A stretch of DNA of 64,000 nucleotides from a virus (taxonomy: Duplodnaviria; Heunggongvirae; Uroviricota; Caudoviricetes). The notes under the pieces were generated by a model, which searched no databases, was not told the origin of the DNA, and worked only from the letters and a program-made list of their open reading frames with translations. The translations under genes were made by a program, and so were the position numbers. The stretch lies in the IMG/VR virus record IMGVR_UViG_3300037502_002518, positions 5,712-69,711 of that record. The stretch is one strand, 5' to 3'. The first letter of the stretch is position 1. Each line of letters begins with the position of its first letter. Shown here piece by piece: positions 5,686 through 55,939 of this stretch.

Positions 5686-5901
5686 ATGTTTAAAATGAAC
5701 AAAAATGAAAACAAAACAAACACGTTACTACTGGTAGTTATTGCAGGTGCAATCCTATTCTTTGGGATTTTTGCAATGAACAAGTTTAATGAAAGCGAAG
5801 AAGAAAAAGAACGAGAAGAACGATATGAACAGCTAGAAAAACAGAAAGAAGAGATTGATAAAGTTAACGAGTATTTAGACCTTAGAGAAGAGCTTGAATA
5901 G
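5686..5901 (+). CDS. small membrane protein (one TM helix followed by an E/K-rich tail)
   Basis: hydrophobic stretch LLLVVIAGAILFFGIFAM. Confidence 0.5.
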   Translation: MFKMNKNENKTNTLLLVVIAGAILFFGIFAMNKFNESEEEKEREERYEQLEKQKEEIDKVNEYLDLREELE

Positions 5902-7608: not shown

Positions 7609-8568
7609 ATGTTTAATCAAGAATTCAAAAAATCATTCTTAGACACATTCGAGAATGTAAAAACAAAAGAAACGTATTCAAGAATTTTTAAAAATTCAAT
7701 GACACTAGAGACAAAACTAAACAAAGACCTTTACAATTTTTCAAAAGCAGAAATAAATACTTTTCTAAAAGAATATCTAGTAGCTAAAACAAAACAGTCA
7801 ATCAGAACTTACGTCAGTGTTATTTCAAGATATGTATATTTTGCAAACGTTCAAGGGGTGACGGATAACACTGGAGAATATGTAAGCAAAAATCAAAAAT
7901 ACTTCTTTAAATATTTAAACAAAGAGACACAAATATATTTGTCAAAAAGTGAAATAGATTCTATCATCTTAAGCTTAGTAAATGCTCAAGATGCTTTTAT
8001 CATCAGTGCTTTATTCGATGGAATCGAGGGGACTAAAGTTGAAGAGTTAACAAGATTAAAAATTCAAGATATAGATGTTTTATCCAGAGTAGCAAAGGTA
8101 AAAAGTAAAAAAGGGGAAAGAGAAGTATCTATATCAAAAAGAACTGTTGATTTGGCTTTGATGGCAAATGGAGAGGTAGAGTATTATAAAAAGAATGGTG
8201 AATCAGAGCATGAAAGAGACACCATAGAGCTTGTTGAAAATTCACCATATATTTTAAAACCATCGAATTCCAGACCATCAAACGAGGGTTATGTTAGTCA
8301 CTATACAGTTTATAATAGACTTGAGATGATTAAAAGCCTAGAAGAATTTGAAGAGTTAAAAGATGCTTTAACAACAAAAAATATAATGAGAAGTGGTATG
8401 ATTTATGAAGCAAGTAAGATTGTTCAAGAAAATGGTACGTTAAGTCTGGACGATGTGAAAGACATTTGTAAGAAGTATAACGTTAGATACGTTTGGTCAG
8501 TGAATGACTTCTTAAACAAAGATGTGGTTGAATCAATATATGGAACATTGACAAAAGAAGCTGTTTAA
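7609..8568 (+). CDS. hypothetical 319-aa protein; N-terminal part weakly resembles the integrase SAM-like core-binding fold (speculative)
   Basis: long ORF with RBS AAAGGGATGGGGGA; no clear catalytic motifs. Confidence 0.5.
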   Translation: MFNQEFKKSFLDTFENVKTKETYSRIFKNSMTLETKLNKDLYNFSKAEINTFLKEYLVAKTKQSIRTYVSVISRYVYFANVQGVTDNTGEYVSKNQKYFFKYLNKETQIYLSKSEIDSIILSLVNAQDAFIISALFDGIEGTKVEELTRLKIQDIDVLSRVAKVKSKKGEREVSISKRTVDLALMANGEVEYYKKNGESEHERDTIELVENSPYILKPSNSRPSNEGYVSHYTVYNRLEMIKSLEEFEELKDALTTKNIMRSGMIYEASKIVQENGTLSLDDVKDICKKYNVRYVWSVNDFLNKDVVESIYGTLTKEAV

Positions 8569-8607
8569 ATTACTTGTCTACCAAAAGTAGGCAAGTAATT
8601 TTTTTTC
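8569..8607 (+). terminator. rho-independent terminator (13-bp stem ATTACTTGtCTAC/GTAGgCAAGTAAT plus T8)
   Basis: hairpin followed by T-run, immediately after stop of 7609-8568. Confidence 0.75.
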
Positions 8608-8684
8608 AAATAAAGGGTTGCTTTTCCAACAGAGTAATGATAAGATATAAATATAAGTCATCAAATATTGAAAGGGCGGTTTTA

Positions 8685-9089
8685 ATGGAATTAACTTTAA
8701 AAGAGCTAGGGTTTGTAGGTAAAAATTATGAGAACATGAGTCATGTGTTAAGCCTATTAAATGACAATGAGTATTTTGAGTCATATCTGTTAGACAATAT
8801 AGATAATTTAAAAAGCCCACTTGACATTCATCAGTCGTTTAGGTTAGAATTAATTAAGAATAAGCGTTGCACTCAAAAACAGTTTAAAAAATACTTAGAA
8901 AAGGGGTGGGATATAATAGCATATGAGAGTGTGATGTTTTGTAAAATGAACCGCCTTGCAGAAAAGAAATTTAAAAAAATTATTAATTCTGATTTGACCA
9001 ACGATGATTTTTATGATAAGTTAGTAGAGAACAGTTTTGAGTACAGTCCGTTATTGTGTCTCAAAAAAATTGAACAAGAGTTAGCTTAA
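8685..9089 (+). CDS. hypothetical protein (134 aa; track ORF 8574-9089 trimmed to ATG after RBS GAAAGGGCGG)
   Basis: ORF begins downstream of the terminator. Confidence 0.45.
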   Translation: MELTLKELGFVGKNYENMSHVLSLLNDNEYFESYLLDNIDNLKSPLDIHQSFRLELIKNKRCTQKQFKKYLEKGWDIIAYESVMFCKMNRLAEKKFKKIINSDLTNDDFYDKLVENSFEYSPLLCLKKIEQELA

Positions 9090-9216
9090 TAAAATGTTTT
9101 TACTCACGAAAAATTGTGGGTAAAAACGCAACAGTGGAGTGCCAATTAAAATGGTACGTTGGTGAGTGGTTGGTTGGGTCATCAACAAAAATATAACTAA
9201 TGAGGTGGATTTAAAA

Positions 9217-10236
9217 ATGTCAGCAGAAAAAACAAATGGCAAGTTTAAGTTAGAAGGTTTTGTAGAAGGGTTAAATGGGGAATTTGCTTTTCGTGAGGGG
9301 TACACAAAGACAGACAAGCATTACAAGTCTTTATCTTTCTTTGTTCAAACGTCAAAGACAAACAAGATTCGAGTAGAACTGTTTGGTATGGTTCGTGACA
9401 AAGTTAAGGCTTACTCAAGTAAAGCAAAGAAAACAAAAGATGTTAGCTGGGAAGCACGAGACAAAGACCATAAAGATTACAAAGTAATGGGAACAAACAT
9501 TGAGGTAGAGGAAAACGAAAAAGGAAAGCTTGTACGAAAAGTTTTAGTTGAGTACGATGCAATTGATTACTTACGTAAAAATTTAAAAGATGGCGATGCA
9601 GTACGTGTCAATGGTGATGTAGATTTTCAATCATTTGAAGATAAAAACGGTGAAAAAAAATATTCAACAAAATTCCCGTTCCGATATATTAAAAAACTTA
9701 CAGAAGATGAAGCAAAAGAGATTGATTTAACTACTGACAACATTGTTGGAAAGTCAGTATTTGAACAAGACATTATTATCAATGAAGTCGAACGTGATGA
9801 TGATATGGGCAAGCTTTTAGTCCATGTATTTACTGTAAAATACAATGGGGATATTGTTCCTGCAACACTTGTTGTAAATACAGAAGACCTTCCTAAGCTT
9901 GCAAAGAATCTGGAGAAACGCTTAAACTTTGGTGACTTGTTAACTGTATATGGCAATGCAGTCAATATGGCAGTTACAGAGCCATCTGGAGAAGCAGAAT
10001 CAAGCCTAGAAGATGACGAATGGGGCGGAGATGAAGAGCTTGAAGATGAGTTTGACACAATCAATTCTTATGTCAATGAGCTTCAGATTCGTTCAGTCAA
10101 AAAAGGCTCTCACGAACCAAAAATGTATAACGAAGATGATTTAATTAGTAAAGACGAAGATGCATTCAATGGAGACATTGATGAAGATATTGACGAAGAT
10201 TTTGATGATGAAGATGATGAAGACCTTCCATTTTAA
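9217..10236 (+). CDS. ssb: single-stranded DNA-binding protein-like (long form, acidic C-terminal tail ending DEDDEDLPF)
   Basis: RBS AATGAGGTGG; C-terminal acidic tail with terminal hydrophobic-P-F typical of SSB; position before recombinase and helicase. Confidence 0.55.
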   Translation: MSAEKTNGKFKLEGFVEGLNGEFAFREGYTKTDKHYKSLSFFVQTSKTNKIRVELFGMVRDKVKAYSSKAKKTKDVSWEARDKDHKDYKVMGTNIEVEENEKGKLVRKVLVEYDAIDYLRKNLKDGDAVRVNGDVDFQSFEDKNGEKKYSTKFPFRYIKKLTEDEAKEIDLTTDNIVGKSVFEQDIIINEVERDDDMGKLLVHVFTVKYNGDIVPATLVVNTEDLPKLAKNLEKRLNFGDLLTVYGNAVNMAVTEPSGEAESSLEDDEWGGDEELEDEFDTINSYVNELQIRSVKKGSHEPKMYNEDDLISKDEDAFNGDIDEDIDEDFDDEDDEDLPF

Positions 10237-19426: not shown

Positions 19427-19798
19427 ATGCTTCTTTTATATATGAGTTTGACTGGGAACGTGAGAGAGTTTGTTGAAAAAACAGGCTTGAAAAATAGAGA
19501 GATAGAGCCTACAAATCCATTCTTTGAAGTTAATGAGGACTTTGTAATTGTAGTTCCATCATATGAAGGATATATAAATGAAGAAGTTGAAGACTTTTTA
19601 TCATATAAAGACAATTCAAAGTTTTTGAGAGGTTTTGCATCAAGTGGAAATTTGAATTTTGATGAACTATTTTGTGTGAATGCAAAGCAGTTGTCAAAGA
19701 AGCTCAATAAACCTCTTTTTTTTAAGTTTGAATATAGTGGTACAGACAGAGATGTTAATTTGTTTTTAGAAAGGTTGGGAGAAATTGAAAAAGGTTGA
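19427..19798 (+). CDS. nrdI: NrdI flavodoxin-like protein
   Basis: N-terminal [13 protein letters not shown] (flavin-binding loop), size, position. Confidence 0.75.
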
Positions 19799-20525
19799 GC
19801 TAAAAAAGGGGAAAGAAAGTGAGAATTATTTTCACTTAAATAATTTGTTAAATATTCCAAAAGATGGAAAGATACAACTAAATAAAGACAAAGAGGCTGT
19901 AAAAGAATATTTCCTTGAGTACGTGAATCCAAATACAATGTTCTTTCATTCATTAGAAGAAAAGTTGGGATATTTGATTGAAAATGATTATATCGAAGAA
20001 GATATGATTAACAACTATAGCAAGGAATTCATTAAAGACTTATTTAAAAAGGCATATGACAAGAAGTTTAGGTTTAAAAGTTTTATGGGAGCATATAAGT
20101 TTTATTCCCAATATGCTATGAAGACAAATGATGGAAAGTGGTTCTTAGAACGATATGAAGACCGTGTTGTCTTTAACGCTTTAAAGCTTGCAATGGGAGA
20201 CGAAAGTTTAGCAGATTCGCTGGTTGAAGAAATGATAAACCAACGTTATCAACCTGCAACTCCAACATTTTTAAATGCAGGGAAAAAGAGACGTGGAGAA
20301 TTTATTTCATGTTTCCTGCTTACAATTGATGACTCTATGAATTCAATTGGACGTGCAATTAATTCTGCTTTGCAACTATCGAAGCGAGGTGGAGGGGTAG
20401 GAATCGGATTATCTAACATTCGTGCCAACAATGACCCAATCAAAGGTGTTGAAGGTTTATCGGACGGTGTTGTTCCTGTCATGAAGTTGTTAGAGGATTC
20501 GTTCTCATATGCCAATCAACTGGGT
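19785..20525 (+). CDS. nrdE: class Ib ribonucleotide reductase alpha subunit NrdE, exon 1
   Basis: [24 protein letters not shown] motifs; ends ...SYANQLG. Confidence 0.8.
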
Positions 20526-20848
20526 TGACATACAGGCTCAGTATAAAACGGGTTAACTGCTGGAACTTCTTTAGAGCTTAATGCGCCACAACGCAACTGG
20601 AAACGGTAATCGTAAAGGCTTAAAAAGTATTAAGATTAGAAAATCAGCATCCACTCCTCTAAGTGTTAAAACATAAGAGGAAGGTTCAACGACTAAGTGA
20701 CAGCAAAAGTGATTTTGTTGTCCGAATCCGTTAAATGTTTAATAAATAACACTCTTTATTAAATATGAAATATATAGTCTGTTCTTTAGGGAGACCTAAA
20801 GAGTGTAGCAGAAATGACTGCACCCCACGTTAGTGGAGTAACAAAAAG
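20526..20848 (+). mobile_element. group I intron 1 in nrdE (323 nt, no ORF)
   Basis: R-like AACGACTAAG and S-like ATATAGTCTG P7 elements; 5' exon ends U, intron ends G; splicing restores ANQLG|QRSGSGVTYL. Confidence 0.7.
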
Positions 20849-21265
20849 CAAAGGTCTGGTTCTGGAGTAACGTACTTGAATATCTTCCACCCAGATGTGA
20901 TTGACTTTCTTGCAGTAAGAAAAGAGAATGCAGATGAAAAGGTTAGAATTAAAACTTTATCTCTTGGTTTAGTTGTCCCAGACAAATATTATGAGCTTGT
21001 AAAAAACAATGAGAATATGTATCTTTTCTCTCCTTATGATGTTGAAAAAGAATATGGAAAACCTTTCTCATATATTGATATTACAAAAGAATATGACAAC
21101 ATGGTTAATAATAAAAATATTCGTAAATCTAAGATTAAAGCGAGAGAATTAGAAACTGAAATTAGTAATCTTCAAAATGAAAGTGGTTATCCTTATATTA
21201 TTAATATTGACCATGCAAACAAAGCCAACCCAGTTCATGGAAAAATTATCCAGAGTAACTTGTGT
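20849..21265 (+). CDS. nrdE: NrdE exon 2
   Basis: ...YLNIFHPDVIDFL ... SNLC. Confidence 0.75.
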
Positions 21266-21542
21266 AAACAAATGCACCTTTAAGTAGGAATGCTTATCGA
21301 AAATCCTGTTAAACGGGGAAACCCTCACTTGAGACAATCCCGTGCTAAATTTATTTGATACATTATGTTTTTTTAAATAATAAATGCCGAACGACTATCC
21401 CACTATGGGAGTACACTACAAGCCTTTGGTGGTGGAAAAGCAGGACATCCAGAACGGATGATGATATAGTCTGCTCTATATGGTGACATATAGCTGTGGT
21501 TAGCCCACGCTCTAATTTTAGCGAGATTAGAGGAACAAAAGG
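21266..21542 (+). mobile_element. group I intron 2 in nrdE (277 nt, no ORF)
   Basis: AACGACTATC and ATATAGTCTG elements; junction restores SNLC|VEIFQV... with the expected 23-residue spacing to DISCNLGS. Confidence 0.7.
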
Positions 21543-22571
21543 GTAGAAATTTTTCAAGTGCAAACGGAGTCAAAAATCAATGATGACCAAACTTATGAAG
21601 TTTTAGGTAGTGATATTTCTTGTAACCTTGGGTCAACCAATATCACAAATTTAATGGAGTCACCAAACTTTGGAAAATCAGTAGAGGTTATGACAAGAGC
21701 ATTAACAAATGTATCTGATATGTCAAGCATTGATTCAGTCCCATCAATAAAAAATGGTAATGATAGATACCACTCTATTGGTCTAGGAATGATGAACCTT
21801 GCTGGGTTCTTAGCAAAAAATCAAATTCATTATGGTAGTGATGAATCACTAGAGTTTGTTGACAAATACTCTATGCTTTTAAATTATTGGACTCTTGTTG
21901 CAAGTAATAAGATTGCAATTGAAAGAGATGAGAAGTTCTATGAATTTGACAAATCAAAGTATGCTAGTGGGGAATATTTTGATGAATACTTTAAGATTTT
22001 AGAACTTGATTTTAAACATGACAAGGTTAAAGGTTTGTTTGGAGGTGTCTATATTCCAACAATGAAAGATTGGAACGTGTTAAAGGATGCTGTTATGACT
22101 TATGGCTTATACTCAGCGTTTAGGCTTGCCACACCTCCGACAGGAAGTATCAGCTACATCAATGAAGCTACAGCTTCAATTCATCCAGTCATTTCAAGAA
22201 TTGAAGAAAGAGTTGAAGGTAAACGTGGTAAAGTTTATTATCCTGCTCCTTATCTTTCAGAAGAAACAATTCCATATTACAAGTCAGCATATGATATTGA
22301 CCAAAGAAAAATTATCGATGTGTATGCTACAGCACAAAATCATATTGACCAAGGTTTGAGTATGACATTATATACAAAATCAAATTTTAATGAAGGTCTT
22401 TATGAATGGAAAGTAGGAACAGCTTATCCTACAGAGAAAACGACAAGAGATTTAAACATTTTCAGAAACTACGCTTGGTCTAAAGGGATTAAGTCAATTT
22501 ACTACATTAGAACGTTTACCGAAGATGGCGATACAATTGGTGCAAACGAATGTGAAAGCTGTAGTGTATAA
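21543..22571 (+). CDS. nrdE: NrdE exon 3 (includes C-terminal CESC)
   Basis: DISCNLGS, C-terminal redox cysteines. Confidence 0.75.
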   Translation, partial: VEIFQVQTESKINDDQTYEVLGSDISCNLGSTNITNLMESPNFGKSVEVMTRALTNVSDMSSIDSVPSIKNGNDRYHSIGLGMMNLAGFLAKNQIHYGSDESLEFVDKYSMLLNYWTLVASNKIAIERDEKFYEFDKSKYASGEYFDEYFKILELDFKHDKVKGLFGGVYIPTMKDWNVLKDAVMTYGLYSAFRLATPPTGSISYINEATASIHPVISRIEERVEGKRGKVYYPAPYLSEETIPYYKSAYDIDQRKIIDVYATAQNHIDQGLSMTLYTKSNFNEGLYEWKVGTAYPTEKTTRDLNIFRNYAWSKGIKSIYYIRTFTEDGDTIGANECESCSV

Positions 22572-23577: not shown

Positions 23578-24228
23578 TTGGCATTAGTTATTAAAAAGGA
23601 CGGTTCAACAAATTACTGGGATAGTGAAAAAATTGTAGAAGCAATTATGAAATCAAGTGATAGAGTAAGCAAGAAAAAGCAACTGACAAAAGAGCAGATA
23701 AAATCCATTGTTGATGGAGTTGAAAAAAATGTATCATCATTTGATACGATTTATACATCAGATATTCACGACATGGTACTGTCTCAATTGCAAATTTTTA
23801 ACAAAAGTGTTTATAGAGAATATAAGATTTATCGTGACTATAAGAAAAAATTTAGCGATTCTTTTATAAATGTCACAGAGTATTCAAACAAGATTGTGTA
23901 CAGTGGGGACAAAGAGAATGCAAACAAAGATTCTACTTTAAATTCAACAAAACAAGCGTTAATTTCAGAGGGCATTATGCGTGAATTCATGAGAAACTTT
24001 GAGCTTAGAAAAGAGTGGGTAAAAGCTCATGATGATGGGTGGATTCACATTCATGATATGGCAAACAGATACCTTGGAGGTATTAATTGTTGCATTTTTG
24101 ATATGGACAATCTACTAAAAGATGGTTTTGAGATGAATGGTTCAAAATACTTTGAACCAAAATCAGCACAAACCGCTTGGGCTGTGATTGGAGATGTGAC
24201 ATTAAGTGCATCTGCGCAACAGTACGGT
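23578..24228 (+). CDS. nrdD: anaerobic (class III) ribonucleotide reductase NrdD, exon 1 (ATP-cone)
   Basis: N-terminal ATP-cone-like sequence; TTG start after RBS AAGGAGAG. Confidence 0.7.
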
Positions 24229-25095
24229 AAATAATTGCCGTAATAAAACCTGCTAACCAGCAAATGCTGGGTGTCTATTAAAAATAGGCTAACGGTGAAA
24301 CCTTAACAGATAATGCTGATGGCAATACCGTGCTTGACTCCATAAATAAATGAAAAGGGGGTGAAAATATGGAAGAAGTTTGGAAGAGTATAGACGATTT
24401 TGAAAATTATATGGTGAGTAACTATGGTAGAGTAAAATCCATCGATAGAATTATAAAAGAAAATGGTAAAAAAGGTTATTTTAAAAAAGGTGTTGTTTTA
24501 AAGGGTCAACCAAATAAAAACAATGGAAGAATATATGTTAACCTATACAACACTAGGGAAAAGAAAATTAAAAATGCGATTGTTGCCAGACTAGTTGCGA
24601 AAGCTTTTATAGACAATCCTAAAAATCTCAGAGAAGTTAATCATATAGATAGAGATGTAACAAATAACCATGTAGACAATTTAGAATGGGTAAGCCCTAA
24701 AGAAAACATGAAACACCTTGAAAATAAATATGGTTTTGATTTTGGCAGAATACCTGTTATTGGAAAACATAAAGAGACTGGGGAAGAAGTTTATTTTTCT
24801 TCAATAAAAAATGCCACTGATTGGCTTAGTGAAAAACAGGGAAAAATTGCTTATGCATCTGGAATAAGCAACTGTTGTAAAAGCACAAGAAAATCTTATA
24901 GAGGATATAAGTGGGAGTCAAGTTTAGAGACTATCGAAAGCATAGATTGACAACAAAAAGCTAGTTGACAATTGAAGAAGCGAGTAGAGTAGGATATGTG
25001 GTGAAATTCCCAATCCGAAACGGCAGGCAACGACTAGCAATCGTTGAAGATATAGTGCAAATAAGTAACCAGTAGGGAAACCTACATCTTATTTG
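24229..25095 (+). mobile_element. group I intron 1 in nrdD (867 nt) carrying an HNH homing endonuclease ORF
   Basis: AACGACTAGC element, structured flanks, internal HNH ORF. Confidence 0.7.
24369..24950 (+). CDS. intron-encoded HNH homing endonuclease (NUMOD4-like N-terminus YMVSNYGRVKS; HNH core EVNHIDRDVTNNHVDNLEWVSPKEN)
   Basis: HNH motif read directly from the sequence; RBS AAAGGGGGTG. Confidence 0.85.
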   Translation: MEEVWKSIDDFENYMVSNYGRVKSIDRIIKENGKKGYFKKGVVLKGQPNKNNGRIYVNLYNTREKKIKNAIVARLVAKAFIDNPKNLREVNHIDRDVTNNHVDNLEWVSPKENMKHLENKYGFDFGRIPVIGKHKETGEEVYFSSIKNATDWLSEKQGKIAYASGISNCCKSTRKSYRGYKWESSLETIESID

Positions 25096-25296
25096 GGTTT
25101 CAGTATTCCAAACATTGAATCAATCGTAGCTCGATATGCCGAAAAATCATATACAACACACTATGAATACTTTATTGACAAAGGTATTGATGATAACAAA
25201 GCTCAAGAGCTTGCTGAAGAAATGACTATTAGAGAGATTGAACAAGGGTATCAAGGGTTTGAAACCAAGTTGAACACTGTCTCAAATTCGCTGGGT
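25096..25296 (+). CDS. nrdD: NrdD exon 2
   Basis: in-frame segment between two introns. Confidence 0.6.
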
Positions 25297-25597
25297 TAGT
25301 TATATGGCTCACCTTACTGTAAACGGTAAGGATAATAGGTGGTGAACCTGCAAAAGCAGGGTGTGTATTAAATTAATATGCTAACGGTAGAACCTAAATC
25401 TTTTGACAAGGCAATACCGTGCCAAGTTTAAAGAGAAATCTTTTTAAAGGTGTAACGACTAAGATGTACGTCCTAAGTGTATACACATATGGATATGAAA
25501 TCTGTACAGACAGAGTGAAATTCTTTGTTTGGAAGCGCCACCCACCTAAAGCTTAAAGCTATGGTGAAGATATAGTCTACACTTATAGAAATATAAG
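25297..25597 (+). mobile_element. group I intron 2 in nrdD (301 nt, no ORF); 5' part closely resembles intron 1
   Basis: AACGACTAAG and GAAGATATAGTCTAC elements; shares AACCTGC-AAAGCAG...CTAACGGT...GGCAATACCGTGC block with intron 1. Confidence 0.7.
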
Positions 25598-26863
25598 GTT
25601 ATTGTGCAAATCCCTTTCGTCTCCATTTCATTTGGTTTAGACACGTCAAAATGGGGCAGAATCATTTCTAAGAAAATGTTGGAAATACGTGAACGTGGTA
25701 TAGGAAGAGACAGGATTTCAGCGGTGTTCCCGAAGCAAATTATGTTTATTCGTAGTGAAATCAACAAAAATGAAGACAGTCCAAATCATGACATTTATTT
25801 AAAAGCAATTGAATGTAGCAGAAAACGTTTGTATCCAGATTATTTAAGCTTAGACTCACCAGAGACGAATAATCTTGCAGAGATTTATGAACGCTCTGGA
25901 CAGGCAGTGATAGCAATGGGATGTAGAGCGTATTTAAGCCCTTATGAATATGAGGGTAAAGAGATTTACAACGGTCGTTTTAACATTGGAGCAGTCAGTT
26001 TAAACTTACCTAAAATGGCAATTGAAGCGAATGGCAACAAAAGTAAGTTTTTAAAATTGATTGATAAATATTCTGAAATGGTTTTTGAAATTCATGAAGA
26101 TTATTACCAAAGACTTTCACAGGTAAAGGCTTCAAGTAACCCACTTCTATTTATGGAAGGTGGCTCATTTAAAAAGCTAAAGGCAGATGAAACAATTGAA
26201 GAGTTACTAAAAGGAGCAACAGCATCATTAGGATACGTTGGTGTTGAAGAAGCAATGGTTGCATTAACTGGGGAAGGAATTACAAAGAATAAAGATTTCT
26301 CCATTGAGACAGTGCAAAGGCTAAAAGATAATGTCAATAAAGCATCAAACAAATACAATAGACTTGGGGCTTTGTACAGTACCCCCGCAGAAAATATTAT
26401 CTACCGTTTTAATAATATTAATCGTGAACAATATGGAGAAATTGACGGTGTAACAACGAGAGAATACATGACAAATTCTTTTCATGTCCCTGTTTTTGAA
26501 GATGTTTCAGTATTAGAGAAGATTGATTTTGAGTCGAACTTTCACTCTATCGCAACAGGTGGAAGAATTTCATATTGTGAGTTCCCTTACAATGTAGATT
26601 CAAAGATTTTAAAACAAGCCATTGATTTTGCAATGGAAAAAGGTTTATACTATGGTGTCAATGTTATTTCAGCAACATGTAATGATTGTTCTCACTCTGG
26701 TGATTTTGAGGATTGCCCAGAATGTGGTTCAGACAATGTGACATCAGTTTCTCGTGTATGTGGATATTTAAGTTTTGGAAAAATTAAAGGGGATTCACGA
26801 TATAACCTTGGTAAGCAAGCAGAGGTAAGAGAAAGAGTAAAACACACATTTGGAGGTTGCTAA
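25598..26863 (+). CDS. nrdD: NrdD exon 3 (glycyl-radical domain, RVCGYL motif, C-terminal Zn site CNDCSHSG...CPECG)
   Basis: glycyl radical motif SRVCGYLS. Confidence 0.75.
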   Translation, partial: VIVQIPFVSISFGLDTSKWGRIISKKMLEIRERGIGRDRISAVFPKQIMFIRSEINKNEDSPNHDIYLKAIECSRKRLYPDYLSLDSPETNNLAEIYERSGQAVIAMGCRAYLSPYEYEGKEIYNGRFNIGAVSLNLPKMAIEANGNKSKFLKLIDKYSEMVFEIHEDYYQRLSQVKASSNPLLFMEGGSFKKLKADETIEELLKGATASLGYVGVEEAMVALTGEGITKNKDFSIETVQRLKDNVNKASNKYNRLGALYSTPAENIIYRFNNINREQYGEIDGVTTREYMTNSFHVPVFEDVSVLEKIDFESNFHSIATGGRISYCEFPYNVDSKILKQAIDFAMEKGLYYGVNVISATCNDCSHSGDFEDCPECGSDNVTSVSRVCGYLSFGKIKGDSRYNLGKQAEVRERVKHTFGGC

Positions 26864-28332: not shown

Positions 28333-28524
28333 ATGAATATTCCAGAAAACGTGAAGAAGTATGCAAGCTATAACATGCATCTTGAATCAGATATGCTTTT
28401 AGAAATTATTAAAAAAAGAAGATTGAATATGGCATATCGAATGACTGACGAAGAAAAGTGGATTGTACAAAACAAAGAGTCTTTTGTAAAATATTTCAAT
28501 AGTGAAAAAGGAGATTCTCAATGA
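28333..28524 (+). CDS. hypothetical protein (63 aa)
   Basis: RBS GAGGTGAGAGCATG. Confidence 0.45.
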   Translation: MNIPENVKKYASYNMHLESDMLLEIIKKRRLNMAYRMTDEEKWIVQNKESFVKYFNSEKGDSQ

Positions 28525-30764
28525 GAAAACTAGTTGTCTTACGTGGCGCTCCTGCCTCTGGAAAAAGCACATTCGTTAAAAACCACAACTTGGAAGACTA
28601 TACAATTAGTACGGACGACATTAGATTACTCTATGGTAGTCCAATAATTGGAGAAGATGGAAATACGTCAATATCTCAAAAAAACAACAAGCAAGTTTTT
28701 GAGTTGATGTTTGATGTTTTAGAACATAGAATGTTGAATGGTGAATTTATTGTTGTTGATGCCACTCACTGCAATAAAAAAGACTTTAACAAGTACAAGT
28801 CATTGGCTAAGTTGCATCGTTACAGAGTTTATGTGGTGGATTTTAACAGAACCTTAGAAGAGTTAAAAGAAAATAACGAAAAGAGAAAATTTACATCTAA
28901 GTTTGTTCCCGAGCATGTAATCGAAAAAATGCACTTTAAACAACAATCTTGGGAGATTCCAAGCTGGGCAAATGTAATAAAGGAAGAAGATTTCCACGAG
29001 TCCATCATTGGAAGTAAGAGATTCAACTATAACAATTGGGAGGAAATTCACCATATTGGGGATATACATGGTTGTTATGATACACTTATGAATTTTGTTG
29101 GTGAATTTTTAAATCCAGAACACCTCTATATCTTTACTGGGGATTTATTTGACAGAGGAGAACAAAATAAGGAAGTTTTAAACTTTATGTTGAACAACTA
29201 TTACAAGGACAATGTTGTTTTTATCGAAGGAAATCATGATACTCCAATGAACTACTATGCTAACAACAGACCAGATTTAATTAAGAATAGAGTGTTCAAA
29301 GAGAGTACAATCCCTCAAATTGAAGAAGGGCTGTCCGACAAAGAGATTGTTGAAATGAAAAGGAAAATTAGACATGCAATGAGACACTTTAAAGATTATG
29401 TTCATTACACTTTTGGAGATGACGATGGAGATAACGTAAAAGTTTTTGTCTCACATGGAGGACTTTCTAACAACCCAATGGTATCAATGTCCATGATTCC
29501 CTCTGTTCAATTCATTAGAGGTGTTGGAGATTACAGTTTAGATATTGACAAGAATTGGTCAGAAAGTAATTCAAACATTTTGCAGATACATGGTCATCGA
29601 AATACTTTTGAACACCCTATTGTGGCAGGAAAGAAATCTGTCAATTTAGAGGGTGGTGTCGAATCTGGTGGAGATTTGCGAGTATACACACTATATAAGA
29701 ACGAGCATGGTCTTGTTTTTCAATATTGTGAAGAATACGATAGCCAAGTAGAATCAAAAAACGAGGTAAAAACAGATGAAGAAAATCTAGTTGATAAAAT
29801 GAGAAACAACAATTTTATTCAAGAAAAACAACTGGGTGACAACATCAGCTCTTTTAATTTTACTAGAAAGGCATTTAAAAAAGGTGTTTGGAATGACTTG
29901 ACAGTAAAGGCAAGAGGATTATTTATAAACACCCACTGTAATGAGATTGTGGCAAGGGGTTACGACAAGTTTTTCAATATAAATGAGGTTGAGTCTACAA
30001 AAGAGGAAAACCTAAAAAGAGGTTTAAAATTTCCTGTTCGTGTATATGAAAAACCAAATGGATACCTTGGTCTTCTTGGATATAATAGTGAAAAAGATGA
30101 GCTTGTATTTGCATCAAAATCACAAACGAATAGTCCTCATGCAAAATGGTTTAAAGAATTATTTTACAAAAAAACAACAGAAATGTCACGATATTATATT
30201 AAGAATTATTTAAAAGAGCATAATTCATCTTTAACGTTTGAAGTAATTTCATTTAATGACCCACACATCATAGAGTATTCAGAAGAGGATATAATCTTAC
30301 TCGATATTATTAAACGTGATATTGATTTTAGCAAAGAGCCTTATGGAAAAGCGGATGGAGATTATAGTTTGTCTGAATCTGTAACAACTCTTGCAGGTAT
30401 TATGGGTTGGAATTGTAAAAAATTACTTGCTATCTTTGGTAGTTATGAACAGTATCATAGTTGGTACAAAAGAGAAATGACCCAAACAACTAAGAAAATT
30501 GAGGGATATGTCATTGAAGACAGCAAAGGGTTTATGTTTAAAATTAAGATGCCATACTATAATTTTTGGAAGCAGATTAGGACAGCAAAAGATATGTATG
30601 CAAAAGGAAATTTGAATATAGATTCACTATATGAAAGAACTCATAATAGACTTGCTACAAAATGGATTATCAATGAATTTGAGAACATAAACAAAGAAGA
30701 ACTGAAGTCAATGTCAATTATTGATTTTAGAAACTATTTTAAAGAGAAAGAAGGAACATTTTAA
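28521..30764 (+). CDS. tri-domain polynucleotide kinase-phosphatase with C-terminal RNA/DNA ligase-like nucleotidyltransferase domain (Pnkp-like RNA repair enzyme)
   Basis: N-terminal P-loop GAPASGKST; calcineurin-type phosphoesterase GDIHGCYDTL, GDLFDRG, GNHD; nucleotidyltransferase motif I KPNGYLGL in C-terminal third. Confidence 0.6.
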   Translation: MRKLVVLRGAPASGKSTFVKNHNLEDYTISTDDIRLLYGSPIIGEDGNTSISQKNNKQVFELMFDVLEHRMLNGEFIVVDATHCNKKDFNKYKSLAKLHRYRVYVVDFNRTLEELKENNEKRKFTSKFVPEHVIEKMHFKQQSWEIPSWANVIKEEDFHESIIGSKRFNYNNWEEIHHIGDIHGCYDTLMNFVGEFLNPEHLYIFTGDLFDRGEQNKEVLNFMLNNYYKDNVVFIEGNHDTPMNYYANNRPDLIKNRVFKESTIPQIEEGLSDKEIVEMKRKIRHAMRHFKDYVHYTFGDDDGDNVKVFVSHGGLSNNPMVSMSMIPSVQFIRGVGDYSLDIDKNWSESNSNILQIHGHRNTFEHPIVAGKKSVNLEGGVESGGDLRVYTLYKNEHGLVFQYCEEYDSQVESKNEVKTDEENLVDKMRNNNFIQEKQLGDNISSFNFTRKAFKKGVWNDLTVKARGLFINTHCNEIVARGYDKFFNINEVESTKEENLKRGLKFPVRVYEKPNGYLGLLGYNSEKDELVFASKSQTNSPHAKWFKELFYKKTTEMSRYYIKNYLKEHNSSLTFEVISFNDPHIIEYSEEDIILLDIIKRDIDFSKEPYGKADGDYSLSESVTTLAGIMGWNCKKLLAIFGSYEQYHSWYKREMTQTTKKIEGYVIEDSKGFMFKIKMPYYNFWKQIRTAKDMYAKGNLNIDSLYERTHNRLATKWIINEFENINKEELKSMSIIDFRNYFKEKEGTF

Positions 30765-50002: not shown

Positions 50003-51517
50003 ATCTCCCGAAAGAAGTCGCCCTCTTCAAGCGTGTAAAAGGCGCATTCAGACGGTAAGGGGGGAGATGAATTTAGGTCAAGCGGTAGATTAAAACTATC
50101 TTTCAATACTTTTTGTGTCAGTTCATAAATTGTACCAGAAAAGCTATTGATATAATTTTTTATTTGACACTTATCAATCACTTCTACTAAGATATTTGGG
50201 AATTCGATTAACTTGGGAACTATTTCCACTGATGTTCTCATCTAATTAGTATATACTAAGAATATGACAAAGGAGGTGACATATAAAATGTTAAAAGCCT
50301 ACAAATATCGACTATATCCAACCGAAAGTCAGAAAGAGTATTTTTCCAATTGTTTTGGTTGCGCTCGATTCATTTACAACAAAATGCTCAGCGACAAAAT
50401 CGACCACTATAAAGAAAACAAGAAAATGCTTTATACCACGCCTGCTAAGTACAAGAAAGAGTTCCCGTTTTTGAAAGAGGTGGACAGTCTAGCATTGGCA
50501 AATGCTAGACAAAATCTGGAAAGAGCTTATAAAAACTTTTTCCGAGACACGTCCGTCGGTTTTCCAAAGTTCAAATCCAAGCACAAGTCGAAATCGAGCT
50601 ACACCACTAACAATCAAGGTGGAAACATTCGTATAGAATACGGAAAAATCAAACTTCCGAAAATCGGATTCGTAAAACTGAAGCAACATAGAATGTTTGA
50701 TGGGGTTATCAAATCTTGTACGATTTCTATGAATAAGTCAGAAAAGTATTTCATTTCTATTCTAGTAAAATCAGAAGAGAAAGAAATGGAAATCACCGAA
50801 AGAAAAATTGGGATTGATTTAGGTATTTCTGATTTTGCGATTACCACGAACGATTTAGGAGAATCCGTTAAATATGATAACCCAAAGTATTTATATAAAT
50901 CAGAAAAGAAACTAAAAAAATACCAACGTTCTTTGTCTCGCAAACAAAAAGGCGGAAAAAACCGCAATAAAGCTCGTATTTAAGTCGCCAAAAAACACGA
51001 AAAGATTGCCAATCAAAGGAAGGACTTCTTGCACAAACTAACTAAACAGATTACGGACGAAAACCAAGTCATCGTAATCGAAACGCTGTCCAGTAAGAAC
51101 CTGATGAAGAACCACAAACTGGCAAAAAGCATTGGTGATGTCAGTTGGTTTGAATTCGTCCGTCAACTTGAATATAAAGCGGAACAAAAAGGTCGTACAA
51201 TTATCAAAGCGGACAGATTCTATCCATCCAGTCAGATTTGTTCCGCCTGTGGACATCGAGATGGAAAAAAAGGCATTGCATATACGAGAATGGGATTGTC
51301 CTAGTTGTGGTGAACACCTTGACCGAGACATCAATGCCAGTAAGAACCTCTTGGCATTAGCCAAGTAAAAGAAAACATATGAGGCAGGGACTGCCTTTTG
51401 AGCCTACCCCATATCCGATTCCTCTGTCTACATGACATTCGTGCAGACAAGAATGGAGTTAGTAGGAAGCCCCACTTTAAAATTTTAAGAATTTAAGTAG
51501 TGGGCAGTTCACTCATG
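50003..51517 (+). mobile_element. IS200/IS605-family (IS1341-like, tnpB-only) element or IStron-like intron inserted in tdk (boundaries approximate)
   Basis: 1.5-kb insert between tdk halves: 260-nt 5' non-coding, TnpB ORF, 150-nt 3' hairpin-rich non-coding; no TnpA. Confidence 0.6.
50264..51368 (+). pseudogene. tnpB: tnpB (OrfB, RuvC-like RNA-guided nuclease family) disrupted by an in-frame TAA (50981-50983) and a frameshift at an A7 run (51265-51271)
   Basis: N-terminal YKYRLYPT; RuvC-I GIDLGI, RuvC-II VIVIETL, zinc finger CSACGH...CPSCG, Ruv[13 protein letters not shown]. Confidence 0.75.
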
Positions 51518-52085: not shown

Positions 52086-52123
52086 GTAATTGTGCCAAAT
52101 AAAATACTAAGGAGGAATTATTA

Positions 52124-55100
52124 TTGTTAGATTCAAGTAATTTTGCAAGCCTGCATTGCCACTCGCATTTTTCGCTTCTCGACTCAATCATGAGTCCAGA
52201 AGACATTGTAAAACAAGCAAAAGAATTGGGCTATAAGGCTGTGGCTGTAACGGAACACGGAAATATGCATTCATTTATTGATGGATACAAAGAAGCTAAA
52301 AAGCAGGGGATTAAGTATATCTTTGGGTCTGAAGTTTATGAGACAGACGACATGGATTATAAAGAGTCAGATGCAAGTCGATACCACTTGCTTTTGTTAG
52401 CTAAAAATGAGACAGGATTAAAAAACTTATTCAAAGTTGTGTCTGAGGGTTCGACAAGAGGTTTCTATGGTAAGCCTCGTATTGATAGAGAACTACTATC
52501 GGAACACTCAGAAGGTCTTATTGCAACAAGCGCTTGCCTTGCGAGTAGATTGATGAGGTTGCTTCAACAGGGCTATTGTCCATGTTGCAAACAAAGCAAT
52601 GGTGAACATAAAGAGTCGTGCGACAACGATGAAGTGTTTGAACCAAAGTGGGAAGAAGCCAAAGAAGAATTACAAAAATATAAAGACATTTTTGGTGACG
52701 ATTTCTACATTGAAATTCAATCACATGATACTCACGACCAAAAGATTGGGAATCAGCGTATTCTTCAATTGGCAAAAGAAACGGATACAAAATTTATTTT
52801 GACATTTGATGCTCACATGCCAGATGGCAGTGAAAAAACGCTTGATATTCATAGACGTTTTATTGAAGTTAGTCAAAAAGGTCGTGAAGTTGGAGAGACT
52901 TATATTGGTTGCTACCAACAAGATATGGAAACGGTTTATGATACCTTAGTCCCTCAAATTGGACAAGAAGATTTAGAGCAAGCTATTTTAAATACTGGAG
53001 CTTTAGCAGATTCATGTGAAGACATTGAATTGGACTTAAACAGACCACCAATTATGCCTCATATTGAATTCCCAAAAGAGTATAAGTCAGATGTTGACTA
53101 CTTAAAAAAGCTTGTCAATGATGGGTGGAAAGAAAGGGAAATCCACAAAAAAACAAAAGAAGAACAAAAGGTTTATAAAGAACGTGTTCTTCATGAGATG
53201 GACATTTTAGAAAAGCTTGATTATGCAGGTTATTTCCTTATCATTCACAAATTTATGAATGAATTTAGAAAGCAAGGTATTCCATTAGGCTGGGGACGTG
53301 GGAGTGCGGCTGGGTCTTTAGTCCTGTATTTAATTGGTGTAACCAATGTAGATAGTGTTTATTGGGATTTAGATTTCTCTAGGTTTGCCAACTTAGGAAG
53401 GCGACAAATGGCTGATGTTGATATTGATATTTCAAAAGCCAAACGTGGAGAAGCCTTAAAAATAACAGATGATTTATTTGGAAATAAAAAAGTTGCACAC
53501 TTGTGTACATTTAATTCTTTCTCACCAAAAGTAGCAATTAAAGACTTGGGGAAAGTATTTGACCAAAGCGAAGATAGTCCATATTTTGGAAAGATTCCAT
53601 ATTCAATGAGGGAACGTGCATCTGGACTAATCACTGATGGTTCTAACATTGAAGACGTTTTAGAAGCATCTGGTGAGCTTAGAAGAATCAAGGAAAAGTT
53701 TCCACTGTGGATTGAATATGCACAAGAACTTCAAAACTTACCTAAATCTGTAGGTTCTCATGCTTCTGCAATCATCATTGCCAACGAAGACATTGTAAAT
53801 TATGCACCTGTTATGTATAACAAAGATGGTCGTGTAATGATGCAAGTTGAAATGGGGAATGCAGAAAAAGACTTGGGACTGGTGAAGTTTGATTATCTTG
53901 GACTTGAGAGTTTAGACGTGGTAAATGAGACTTTATCTCTTTTAGGAAAAGGGTGGGAAGATTTATTTGACATTCCATTTGACGATATAAGTACATTAAA
54001 AAACATTTATGCGAAAGGTAACACACTAGGAGTTTTTCAAATGGAATCACAAACCCCAAGAAAAATATTTGAAGACATGTATGAGGGGATTCCAGAAGAT
54101 AAATTTTCTATCAATGATGTTGTTGCTGTAAATGCTTTAAACAGACCTGCTGTATTGAGTCTTGGAATGCACAACAACTACATCAAAGGGAAAAGAGACG
54201 AATCAGAAGTGTCATACATTCACGAAGACCTTAGACCTATCTTAAATGAGACATATGGTGTTCTCTTATATCAAGAAGAAGCTTTGAATGTTTTTAGACT
54301 TGCAGGATTCCCAGAAGAAGAGGTAGACGTTGCCAGAAGGTGTCTGCGTGAGGACACAATGGTACACATGTCTGACGGAACACAGAAAAAGATAAAAGAT
54401 ATTAAAGTTGGAGATTATGTGTTGAGTTACAATGAGCGTGGAGTATCTGAACCAAAAAGAGTTAACAAAGTTTTTTTCAATGGGAAAAAGTATGTAAACA
54501 GATATTTGACAGAAGAAGGACATGAGATATTTTCAACAAAAGACCATCACGTTTTAGGTCTTAATGGATTCGACAGGATTGAAAATTTTAAAGTTGGTGA
54601 CTGTTTAATGACACCAAAAGAAAGTGTTCTCCCCCAATATGTTCCAACAATAATAAAAAATATCGAAAACAGCATTGAATTTTGTGATGTATATGACATT
54701 GAAGTTGAAGATAACCACAATTATATTGCGAATGATATAATTGTTCACAACTCAATTGGTAAGAAGATTCCAGAAGAGATGGACAAACTATACGACAAAT
54801 TTTCTAGTGGTCTTAAAAAAATAGGATGGAATAAGTTGCAAATAAAGGAAACTTGGGAATTGATTGCTTCACAAGCGACTTACAGCTTTAATAAATCACA
54901 TTCCGCCAGCTATGCAATTCTGTCCTTTGTTATGGCTTATCTAAAAAACCACCATCCAAAAGAGTTTATAACCGCCTTATTGACAGATAAAAGGGGAAAC
55001 TTTGAAGATACATCTCTGTATATTGATGAGGCAAACAGAATGGGGATAAAGGTTTTAGAACCAAATATAAACACATCCAATTTGGCATACACTATATCTG

Positions 55101-55939
55101 ATGAAGGTATTGTATTTGGACTAAGCTCAATTAAGGGTGTTGGCTCTAGTGCAGAGACAATTGTCGAAGAACGAAATACAAACGGTGAATTTAAAGATTT
55201 AGAAGACTTTCTTTCTAGAGTCAAGTCAGACAAGACAGTCACAATCGCACTAATTAAATCTGGTGCTTTTGGACAGGAGAAAAATGAGCTTTTAAAAAGA
55301 TACTTTGAATTTATTTACACTCCTACTTTGTGGAAAGAGAGAAAAACATCTCCATCTAGGAAAGAGTTGCAGAAATTCATTCCAGACTTATCACTAGAGG
55401 ACTTTAAATCTATGACAAAAGAGGATAGAATGGACACATTCAATAAATATAAACATGAGGTTTACAAAAAGTCTGAAGAAAAAAGAAAAATGAACCAATG
55501 GAATGACTTTAAAGACAAGTATATCTCTCATGATGAGTCTATGTATGAGTATGAAACATTGTCAATATTCATCAATGGTAATCCATTTGACCCATACAAA
55601 AACATTATCAAACCATTTGATAAATTTAAAGATGGTTCAGATAAAATACTTGTGGCAGGAACTATTACTGATATACAGAAAAAGAAAGATAAAAACAATA
55701 ACCAATTTGCTTACATTAGCCTATTGACTCCATATGATGGAATTATAGAAGGTCTTGTGTTTGCAGGAGTATATTCAGAAGTTTCTGACATGATTAAAAA
55801 GGGGAACAATATTGTATGTATCTCTAAAAAGAGTGGAAGTCAATTCATACCCAAGAAGATGAAATCTTTTGATGACTGGAAAGAGGTGATAAGACGAAAG
55901 AAGGAAAGAAAAGAAAAGATTGAAAAACTTAAGAAGTAG
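52124..55939 (+). CDS. DNA polymerase III alpha-like (DnaE-type, N-terminal PHP domain) replicative polymerase, contains a mini-intein
   Basis: PHP motif HCHSHFSLLDS...VTEHGNM; DnaE motifs; TTG start after AAGGAGGAATT. Confidence 0.75.
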   Translation: MLDSSNFASLHCHSHFSLLDSIMSPEDIVKQAKELGYKAVAVTEHGNMHSFIDGYKEAKKQGIKYIFGSEVYETDDMDYKESDASRYHLLLLAKNETGLKNLFKVVSEGSTRGFYGKPRIDRELLSEHSEGLIATSACLASRLMRLLQQGYCPCCKQSNGEHKESCDNDEVFEPKWEEAKEELQKYKDIFGDDFYIEIQSHDTHDQKIGNQRILQLAKETDTKFILTFDAHMPDGSEKTLDIHRRFIEVSQKGREVGETYIGCYQQDMETVYDTLVPQIGQEDLEQAILNTGALADSCEDIELDLNRPPIMPHIEFPKEYKSDVDYLKKLVNDGWKEREIHKKTKEEQKVYKERVLHEMDILEKLDYAGYFLIIHKFMNEFRKQGIPLGWGRGSAAGSLVLYLIGVTNVDSVYWDLDFSRFANLGRRQMADVDIDISKAKRGEALKITDDLFGNKKVAHLCTFNSFSPKVAIKDLGKVFDQSEDSPYFGKIPYSMRERASGLITDGSNIEDVLEASGELRRIKEKFPLWIEYAQELQNLPKSVGSHASAIIIANEDIVNYAPVMYNKDGRVMMQVEMGNAEKDLGLVKFDYLGLESLDVVNETLSLLGKGWEDLFDIPFDDISTLKNIYAKGNTLGVFQMESQTPRKIFEDMYEGIPEDKFSINDVVAVNALNRPAVLSLGMHNNYIKGKRDESEVSYIHEDLRPILNETYGVLLYQEEALNVFRLAGFPEEEVDVARRCLREDTMVHMSDGTQKKIKDIKVGDYVLSYNERGVSEPKRVNKVFFNGKKYVNRYLTEEGHEIFSTKDHHVLGLNGFDRIENFKVGDCLMTPKESVLPQYVPTIIKNIENSIEFCDVYDIEVEDNHNYIANDIIVHNSIGKKIPEEMDKLYDKFSSGLKKIGWNKLQIKETWELIASQATYSFNKSHSASYAILSFVMAYLKNHHPKEFITALLTDKRGNFEDTSLYIDEANRMGIKVLEPNINTSNLAYTISDEGIVFGLSSIKGVGSSAETIVEERNTNGEFKDLEDFLSRVKSDKTVTIALIKSGAFGQEKNELLKRYFEFIYTPTLWKERKTSPSRKELQKFIPDLSLEDFKSMTKEDRMDTFNKYKHEVYKKSEEKRKMNQWNDFKDKYISHDESMYEYETLSIFINGNPFDPYKNIIKPFDKFKDGSDKILVAGTITDIQKKKDKNNNQFAYISLLTPYDGIIEGLVFAGVYSEVSDMIKKGNNIVCISKKSGSQFIPKKMKSFDDWKEVIRRKKERKEKIEKLKK
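54341..54751 (+). mobile_element. mini-intein (137 aa, no endonuclease domain) in the polymerase: CLREDTMVH...IIVHN followed by S
   Basis: N-terminal Cys, block B TKDHH, C-terminal VHN+Ser; flanking extein ARR|SIGKKIPEEM matches the conserved DnaE RRAMGKKKPEEM region. Confidence 0.75.

Follow-up and report, generated by a model that had tools for sequence, protein, structure and literature searches.

A class-1 mini-intein without homing endonuclease in the DnaE-type DNA polymerase gene of a Caudoviricetes phage

DNA polymerase III's alpha subunit (Pol III alpha) is one of the bacterial proteins richest in inteins. The survey by Novikova et al. (2016, MBE; PMC4760082) counted 116 inteins in this protein, and its insertion points a-d and g all fall into 75 residues of the fingers. 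Additional insertion sites have been described for DnaE genes from metagenomes (PMC2677866), and in 2025 Pol III alpha inteins were reported for actinobacteriophages, together with mini-inteins, endonucleases in decay and inteins that are identical although their exteins have diverged (bioRxiv 10.1101/2025.01.02.630785). Intein-bearing DnaE genes, the hot spot in the fingers and the very insertion site described here are already represented in the literature and in the databases. We analyzed a stretch of 64,000 nucleotides from a virus of the Caudoviricetes (positions 5,712 to 69,711 of the IMG/VR record IMGVR_UViG_3300037502_002518; the whole stretch is called the window below) and found that its DnaE-type polymerase gene carries a genuine class-1 mini-intein of 137 amino acids, which consists of the HINT splicing domain only and involves no homing endonuclease. 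A preceding inspection of the letters alone (the sequence-only reading) had proposed such an element at 54341-54751. Its coordinates and the peptides it quoted were correct, and hidden Markov models (HMMs), matches to structures in the Protein Data Bank (PDB) and the predicted fold agree with the proposal. Very probably, this insert is a functional intein that is spliced out of the polymerase precursor and that descends from a LAGLIDADG-bearing ancestor, the endonuclease of which has been lost.

The open reading frame (ORF) of the precursor starts with TTG and encodes 1271 amino acids plus a stop codon, which corresponds to a molecular mass of 146.1 kDa. Its N-terminus (MLDSSNFASLH) matches that of the homologous polymerase P0002 (MLDSSLMASLH). 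The host protein had been classified as a DnaE-type polymerase of the C family, and this is borne out by TIGR00594 (734.7 bits, cut-off 434.35) and by four Pfam domains (PHP, 167 bits; DNA_pol3_alpha, 216 bits; DNA_pol3_finger, 106 bits; HHH_6, 78 bits, amino acids 974-1051). Thus, the complete family architecture of PHP, palm/thumb, fingers and HhH was recovered above the thresholds. The palm motifs ADVDID (53411-53428) and KFDYLGL (53885-53905) are present, and when the window protein was aligned with Taq Pol III alpha (3e0d), MADVDID and KFDYLGL came to lie opposite MPDIDTD(F) and KMDFLGL. The Asp triad is conserved; in E. coli Pol III alpha, it consists of D401, D403 and D555 (PMC11253446). 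Because of the intact ORF, the strong Shine-Dalgarno sequence and the conserved Asp triad, the host polymerase gene looks functional as far as this can be read from the sequence.

The insert comprises exactly 411 nucleotides (137 codons) and is in frame. Its removal leaves a protein of 1134 amino acids (130.2 kDa) with the junction ...EEVDVARR-SIGKKIPEEM..., so that the sizes predicted earlier for precursor (1271 residues) and product (1134 residues) are right. In the precursor, the extein junction lies between residues 739 and 877 and thus about 50 residues upstream of FNKSH (54887-54901, amino acids 922-926 of the precursor, in the C-extein), the motif that holds the steric-gate histidine (H760 in E. 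coli numbering). The spliced junction could be aligned gap-free to E. coli Pol III alpha (2hnh), with RR corresponding to R709-R710 and Ser+1 to A711, and the same alignment confirmed the E. coli consensus that had been quoted as LRRAMGKKKPEEM. By this alignment, the insertion point is in the fingers domain between the conserved Arg-Arg and the residue equivalent to E. coli A711.

It can be seen directly in the sequence that the insert starts with Cys, carries a TxxH block B, ends in HN and is followed by Ser+1, as had been noticed before. The codon of the block A nucleophile Cys1 is TGT (54341-54343), the penultimate His and the terminal Asn are encoded by CAC-AAC (54746-54751), and Ser+1 is encoded by TCA (54752-54754). 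Block B (T66-K-D-H69) extends over 54536-54547 (amino acids 805-808 of the precursor) and aligns with TGNH of the Npu DnaB intein and with TANH of the Ssp DnaB intein. Blocks F and G read VYDIEVEDNHNYIANDIIVHN (54689-54751), with the residues numbered VYD119IEVEDNH126NYIANDIIVH136N137. The agreement with the pattern of an intein goes far beyond chance. In an alignment with inteins that occupy the same site in other polymerases, C1, T66, H69, D119, H126, H136 and N137 do not vary, and position +1 is taken by either Ser or Cys. Besides Cys1, the intein has two internal cysteines at positions 88 and 115.

Profile comparisons with the whole protein and with the insert alone led to the same assignment. 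The Pfam model Intein_splicing (PF14890) scored 43.4 bits with the former and 54.0 bits (E 2.1e-14) with the latter (gathering score 35.8). The corresponding values were 28.2 and 34.1 bits for the intein N-terminal model TIGR01445 (cut-off 24.5) and 36.2 and 35.0 bits for the intein C-terminal model TIGR01443 (cut-off 15.6). When the insert was compared with the PDB by phmmer, we obtained the Ssp DnaB mini-intein (1mi8, E 1.5e-10) and the Npu DnaB intein (4o1r, E 1.5e-9), and the gp41-1 intein was also among the best sequence matches with a solved structure. An AlphaFold model built from a four-sequence allele alignment shows one compact all-beta domain (mean predicted local distance difference test score, pLDDT, 92.8; predicted template modelling score, pTM, 0.86), and for this domain a HINT fold is predicted. 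Foldseek placed 4o1r first (template modelling score, TM, 0.92; root-mean-square deviation 1.3 Å), followed by the Ssp DnaB and Mtu RecA mini-inteins, and the top 50 PDB matches were without exception intein, bacterial intein-like (BIL) or hedgehog HINT domains.

The absence of an endonuclease domain, which had also been stated, was confirmed. No endonuclease family (LAGLIDADG, HNH or other) was detected in the insert by Pfam and NCBIfam scans, 137 residues, a length within the range of about 130-200 residues for a splicing domain alone, leave no space for such a domain, and the segment of about 300 residues that is present in the inteins of the homologues P0005 and P0048, where it matches the LAGLIDADG model PF14528, is missing from the window. 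The whole LAGLIDADG insertion of these large alleles maps between window residues 93 and 94, and residues 91-100 of the surrounding loop form the sole low-confidence stretch of the structural model (mean pLDDT 74). Nor does the element correspond to a naturally split DnaE intein, since it is part of one contiguous ORF and its site is upstream of FNKSH. We also considered an endonuclease ORF that is out of frame or antisense to the intein, an arrangement known from some inteins of phages and cyanobacteria. Only an 85-residue ORF on the reverse strand (54266-54523) overlaps the intein, and it was dismissed because of its small size and because such ORFs are common in DNA of 33% G+C. The positions of the intein, its host gene and their parts are summarized in Table 1.

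Table 1. Positions of the intein, the polymerase gene and their parts in the window
Feature	Position	Strand	Basis
Precursor gene, DnaE-type (C-family) DNA polymerase III alpha + intein	52124..55939	+	ORF list, Pfam, TIGR00594
Shine-Dalgarno sequence AAGGAGG, 8 nucleotides 5' of the polymerase TTG start	52109..52115	+	direct sequence reading
N-extein, 739 amino acids: PHP, palm, thumb, start of fingers; ends ...EEVDVARR	52124..54340	+	
Class-1 mini-intein, 137 amino acids, 15.9 kDa	54341..54751	+	HMMs, PDB matches, AlphaFold/Foldseek, empty-site alleles
Loop PKESVLPQY (intein residues 92-100), putative endonuclease scar	54614..54640	+	alignment to allelic inteins
C-extein, 395 amino acids plus stop; starts with Ser+1 in SIGKKIPEEM; rest of fingers, HhH, C-terminal region	54752..55939	+	

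The strongest evidence for an intein came from the 120 best homologues of the polymerase. In 77 of them, the motif RR-[A/S]-[I/M/V]-[G/S]-KK is uninterrupted (+1 residue Ala in 67 and Ser in 10), which bears out the previous statement that the two flanks reconstitute the DnaE consensus (RR-[A/S]-[I/M]-GKK). The closest homologues, P0001 (66% identity) and P0002 (65% identity; 1134 amino acids, the predicted length of the spliced protein), read NARR-SIGKKI and lack exactly these 137 residues. Judged from this alignment, they are exact empty-site alleles in which the Ser needed for splicing is already in place. The same is seen at the DNA level. In the P0002 contig (L003), the empty site reads ...GCAAGAAGG directly followed by TCAATTGGG..., and the junctions of the window read ...GCCAGAAGG, then the 411 nucleotides, then TCAATTGGT.... 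Thus, the alignment against intein-less homologues, which had been recommended as a check, revealed a precise absence of the insert. A native insertion of another kind was not encountered at this site: P0001 and P0002 have no insert, and the inserts of other homologues are recognisable inteins, some of them with LAGLIDADG domains. The gene order of the window recurs in the P0005 contig (L002) and in L003, so that related phages are polymorphic for the intein.

In 14 of the 120 homologues, an insert occupies exactly this position, and these alleles differ in size. P0005, the extein of which is 64% identical to that of the window, carries an intein of 434 residues with LAGLIDADG, and P0048 carries one of 430 residues, also with LAGLIDADG. 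Partial deletions of the endonuclease are found in P0039 and its relatives (192 residues) and in P0042 (185 residues), the internal deletions being different, and P0046 has a mini-intein of 139 residues. The splicing domain of the window shares 55% identity with that of P0005 and 42-47% with those of the other aligned alleles (P0048, P0039, P0042, P0046). Compared side by side, the full LAGLIDADG, partly deleted and mini alleles represent a decay series with all stages of the homing cycle. Because alleles in every stage of decay occupy the same site, the window intein is an endonuclease-less end state of this cycle. The identity of the inteins roughly tracks that of the exteins (55% versus 64% for P0005; 42-47% versus about 40% for the P0046/P0048 clade), and this suggests a long residence of the window intein rather than a recent jump between distant hosts. 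We also inspected the base composition for signs of a recent invasion, but the G+C content of the intein (0.326) is not distinctive when compared with that of the exteins (0.353 +/- 0.023 in 411-nucleotide windows).

According to the mechanism we propose, translation would yield the 146-kDa precursor, which folds and then undergoes an N-S acyl shift at Arg739-Cys1. Ser+1 would attack the resulting thioester (transesterification), cyclisation of Asn137 with the help of His136 would release the 15.9-kDa intein, and an O-N shift would create the native ...DVARR-SIGKK... peptide bond of the 130-kDa polymerase. Splicing to this product is likely because none of the class-1 catalytic residues has been lost. 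As the insert interrupts a strictly conserved motif of the fingers adjacent to the active site, the precursor should be inactive, and it can reasonably be inferred that polymerase activity depends on splicing, as had been suggested before. Historically, a LAGLIDADG-bearing intein would have homed into the site in an ancestor and its endonuclease domain would have been deleted later. The remaining splicing domain, now immobile, would have been retained, since the polymerase would become inactive if splicing were lost. As judged by comparison of genes, continued function is supported by the intact state of the catalytic residues and of the 3.8-kb ORF and by the pattern of divergence from the sibling phages L006-L008. 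Several considerations weigh on the other side. Splicing competence was deduced from the conserved residues and the intact host gene only, and the essentiality of the polymerase for the phage is assumed. The Arg at position -1 and the low-confidence loop could render splicing inefficient or dependent on conditions. Finally, E. coli R709/R710 presumably bind the incoming dNTP; published descriptions place this region in the fingers and near the active site.

The divergence between siblings bears on how the intein has been maintained. The intein of L006 differs from that of the window by 1 synonymous substitution in 411 nucleotides, as compared with 81 differences in the 3405 nucleotides of the exteins. 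In the whole protein there are 13 amino acid changes, none of which is located in the intein, and the small number of amino acid changes relative to nucleotide changes points to purifying selection on the whole polymerase gene. When the intein was considered together with the last 58 codons of the N-extein, we counted 2 differences in about 585 nucleotides, and 7 differences were found in the first 22 codons of the C-extein (amino acids 878-898; compared region 54341-54820). Since divergence between the two phages resumes there, the C-terminal splice junction is also a recombination boundary, perhaps by chance or perhaps as a trace of intein transfer. The low divergence also spans the 58 N-extein codons and is for this reason interpreted as the mark of a recombination block, not of selection acting on the intein; there is a small possibility that the intein was recently transferred laterally.

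We consider it unlikely that the mini-intein has been kept as a post-translational gate of replication or is still moving between phages without an endonuclease of its own. Movement comes into question because the intein is so much less diverged than the exteins and because divergence resumes exactly at the C-terminal junction. Decidedly unlikely is a conditional-splicing switch, in which a cue (redox via Cys1 with Cys88 or Cys115, temperature, metal ions) would gate the onset of replication. The two internal cysteines and the near-identity of the intein in two diverged phages fit such a scenario, and conditional splicing has precedents in inteins of other replication proteins, for instance in DnaB of mycobacteria, where zinc is involved (PMC7360933), and in RadA of P. 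horikoshii (PMC4513877). However, we found no sequence feature that is specific for regulation, Cys88 and Cys115 are outside the invariant set of the allele alignment, many siblings are without the intein, and the recombination block explains the low divergence better than selection.

Another scenario is that of a splicing-dead relic, which would be an intein by descent in a DnaE gene that is effectively a pseudogene, with another polymerase replicating the phage. Since the endonuclease is gone, the element is old and immobile, and it is not the only mobile element of the phage that has decayed, as a broken TnpB (50264-51304) shows. However, the class-1 catalytic residues are all intact and invariant among the alleles, the 3.8-kb ORF is free of frameshifts and stops, Asp triad and Shine-Dalgarno sequence have been kept, and the substitution pattern in L006 points to purifying selection. 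Thus, the probability of a relic is very small, and we prefer the functional mini-intein.

To see how widespread such elements are, we used the intein for an exhaustive HMMER scan of 1.84 billion cluster representatives, which returned 4315 matches at E <= 1e-3. The closest single-intein representatives that were inspected (39-48% identity) are mostly DnaE-like with the same flanks, and at least 17 further cluster representatives show the pattern xxR[R/K]-C...HN-C[I/F][G/A/S]KK, where the hyphens mark the junctions. Among them are full-size inteins of 415-437 residues and mini-inteins of 129-153 residues. In public databases, some alleles are named 'DNA polymerase III alpha subunit/intein/homing endonuclease' (JGI/IMG), and the RefSeq name of another is 'LAGLIDADG family homing endonuclease [Holdemanella porci]' (WP_418583575.1). 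A search with the intein alone in a word-indexed set of 5.8 billion proteins gave 31 candidates, none of them significant, which reflects the sensitivity limit of the index and not an absence of relatives. Megablast of the polymerase gene against deposited phages gave no match, tblastn with the intein recovered no relative within a DnaE gene from 50,697 deposited phage genomes, and an exact 50-mer spanning the N-terminal junction had no match in IMG/VR or in the GTDB species genomes. A pattern scan of the same GTDB genomes based on the intein alignment yielded 80 loci with identities of at most 37% (at most 51% over short partial segments). No cellular DnaE with this allele was among them, and at all 26 loci for which the flanks were read, the surrounding protein is not a polymerase (BIL or PT-HINT-like, Gly-rich or secreted proteins). 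These 26 matches, together with weak sub-threshold hits of the insert to PT-HINT, Hint and Vint, are what could be quoted for a native non-intein HINT-type domain (bacterial-intein-like or pretoxin-HINT) that is retained or merely cleaves, but this idea is hardly credible and appears effectively ruled out by the empty-site and endonuclease-bearing alleles, since BIL and PT-HINT domains are not inserted within a conserved host motif and typically lack the joint set of C1, HN and nucleophile(+1), whereas here this set is complete, the exteins reconstitute the consensus exactly, the same-site alleles bear LAGLIDADG homing endonucleases as the hallmark of true inteins, and only intein models exceed their curated thresholds.

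Apart from the intein, the DnaE genes of several related phages carry additional interruptions. L006-L008 have a group I intron of 270 nucleotides without an ORF (L006 3396-3665; ENA ERZ27247441 k141_430023). In L006, its position corresponds to about 53902/53903 of the window and lies in the codon after ...KFDMLG, the palm motif with the third catalytic Asp. The Rfam model Intron_gpI scores 27.6 bits (E 3e-5) with this intron, which is below the gathering threshold. When L006 3396-3665 is deleted, an exact ORF of 3816 nucleotides results, which runs collinear with that of the window; U is the last nucleotide of the 5' exon and G that of the intron. The L006 DnaE is predicted by gene callers as two products of 593 and 700 amino acids. 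Of the 82 nucleotide differences between L006 and the window, 46 cluster at amino acids 557-681 around the intron site, a distribution that resembles co-conversion. In L002 (Logan ERR14721148_86), the contig with the full-size intein of P0005, a second DnaE interruption of about 1.47 kb was found at about 8488-9960. It is located right after the FNRSH codon (steric-gate His), about 50 residues downstream of the intein site, the exon resumes with SVSYGLL, and the intervening sequence holds a LAGLIDADG-like ORF of 377 amino acids. Rfam gave no match with this interruption. The last nucleotide is U in the 5' exon and G in the intervening sequence, as in group I introns, and on the basis of exon continuity and these splice-site nucleotides we regard it as an apparent group I-like intron.

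The intein-less contigs L003 (2171-2869) and L004 (574-1272), both with P0002, have a 232-residue ORF for an HNH_3-type endonuclease that overlaps the start of DnaE; no such ORF was found upstream of DnaE in the window. Among the isolates, Alicyclobacillus phage KKP_3916 has the closest DnaE, which matches in four pieces over 6.5 kb (OQ846916.1 57954-64433, equal to L001 1501-7980). This region is annotated only as six 'hypothetical proteins', and Rfam detected a group I intron in it (L001 3805-4138, 70.6 bits). Because of the four-piece match and this intron, the polymerase gene of KKP_3916 seems to be intron-split and unannotated as such.

By an exact protein look-up, the window was traced to contig _23164 (73,190 bp) of the Logan assembly SRR11566350. 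The window polymerase gene sits in a phage module for replication and nucleotide metabolism. Genes for an ATP-dependent ligase, ThyA, RNase H, a nucleoside deoxyribosyltransferase and thymidine kinase are located upstream; downstream, RusA is followed by a lysis cassette on the opposite strand (endolysin with amidase_2, PG_binding_1 and LysM; holin). The nearest isolated phages by polymerase identity are Alicyclobacillus phage KKP_3916 (47.7%), Clostridium phage Amboise (37.5%) and Brevibacillus phage Sundance (37.4%), which infect Bacillota.

Other genes of the window are interrupted as well. The large subunit of a class Ib ribonucleotide reductase (nrdE-like, 19785-22571, plus strand) is distributed over the ORFs 19785-20528, 20876-21283 and 21558-22571, with group I introns at 20507-20801 and 21256-21493 (Rfam 52.5 and 84 bits; gathering 50). 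The gene of the anaerobic ribonucleotide reductase nrdD (23578-26863, plus strand) consists of an N-terminal part (23578-24234; ATP-cone and NRDD positions 1-104) and a C-terminal part (25604-26863; NRDD 155-562, glycyl radical), and between them lies a homing-endonuclease-like ORF with NUMOD4 and HNH_3 (24369-24950). Rfam detected no intron at this interruption at the gathering threshold, and the gene either contains an intron or has been fractured by a free-standing endonuclease. The broken TnpB (IS605 OrfB / Cas12f-like, plus strand), which immediately precedes the genes for thymidine kinase and DnaE on their upstream side, has HTH_OrfB_IS605 and OrfB_IS605 in the ORF 50264-50983 and a zinc-ribbon TNB domain in the ORF 51029-51304. 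It looks like a decayed IS200/605-type element. In L006, no gene with an OrfB Pfam match was called in the short stretch upstream of thymidine kinase and DnaE. Finally, the ORF 28521-30764 (plus strand) encodes a protein of 747 residues in which a P-loop kinase (AAA_33) is fused to a metallophosphatase and to an RNA ligase 1 domain of the T4 type, which is an RNA repair protein of the Pnkp/RNA-ligase-like kind.

For annotation, these data mean that the gene should be described as a DnaE precursor with a 137-residue intein and a mature product of 1134 residues and not as an oversized polymerase. As a compact natural Cys1/Ser+1 mini-intein (137 residues versus 142 in the chain of the Npu DnaB intein, 4o1r), the element is a possible tool, and the series of alleles at its site, from full through half-deleted to minimal, could be of use in the engineering of inteins and in studies on endonuclease loss. 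The window phage and its siblings hold a rich set of self-splicing elements. Sibling polymerases have either no element, the mini-intein, the mini-intein with a group I intron, or the full intein with an apparent endonuclease-carrying intron, and with this set one can study the competition of self-splicing elements for a single essential gene. In practical terms the benefit is modest, and existing knowledge on inteins is unchanged.

When we compared the window intein with known systems, the closest relatives were the allelic inteins of uncultured phage-like contigs and Holdemanella porci assemblies (P0005, P0048, P0046, P0130 and others). They share the host protein, the site between RR and [S/C]IGKK, homologous splicing domains (42-55% identity), the residues of blocks A, B, F and G, and near-identical C-termini (NHNY[I/V]AN[D/N]I[I/L]VHN). 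Most of these alleles have the LAGLIDADG domain of about 300 residues or a partly deleted one, whereas the window intein has none, and the +1 residue is Cys in most of them but Ser in the window and in its nearest clade (P0005). With at most 55% identity to any relative found, the window intein is, by sequence comparison, a distinct lineage.

Among the inteins with solved structure, the Ssp and Npu DnaB mini-inteins (1mi8, 6frg, 4o1r) are the best matches (TM 0.89-0.92, 27-31% identity), and they share the class-1 residues Cys1, TxxH and HN with the window intein. However, their host is the replicative helicase DnaB and not a DnaE polymerase, and the Ssp DnaB mini-intein is an engineered deletion of a 429-residue intein, whereas the window intein is a natural mini-intein. 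The cyanobacterial split DnaE intein (Ssp/Npu DnaE; 1zd7, 4kl5) has the same host family, the fingers hot spot and the HINT fold in common with it (TM 0.85-0.87). In contrast to the window intein, it is encoded by two genes, splices in trans, uses Cys+1, is only 19-25% identical in sequence and, by our own reading, adjoins FNKSH about 50 residues downstream of the window site. The window site, between R710 and A711 in E. coli numbering, is 50 residues away from H760 of the FNKSH motif, next to which, again by our own reading, the cyanobacterial split intein (site a) is inserted. It therefore most likely lies inside the 75-residue hot spot of the Novikova survey (PMC4760082), which dealt with cellular genomes, whereas the window derives from a phage. 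The actinobacteriophage inteins (bioRxiv 10.1101/2025.01.02.630785) likewise reside in phage DnaE-type polymerases. Their hosts are Actinobacteria, whereas the window phage has a G+C content of 33% and its nearest isolated relatives infect Bacillota.

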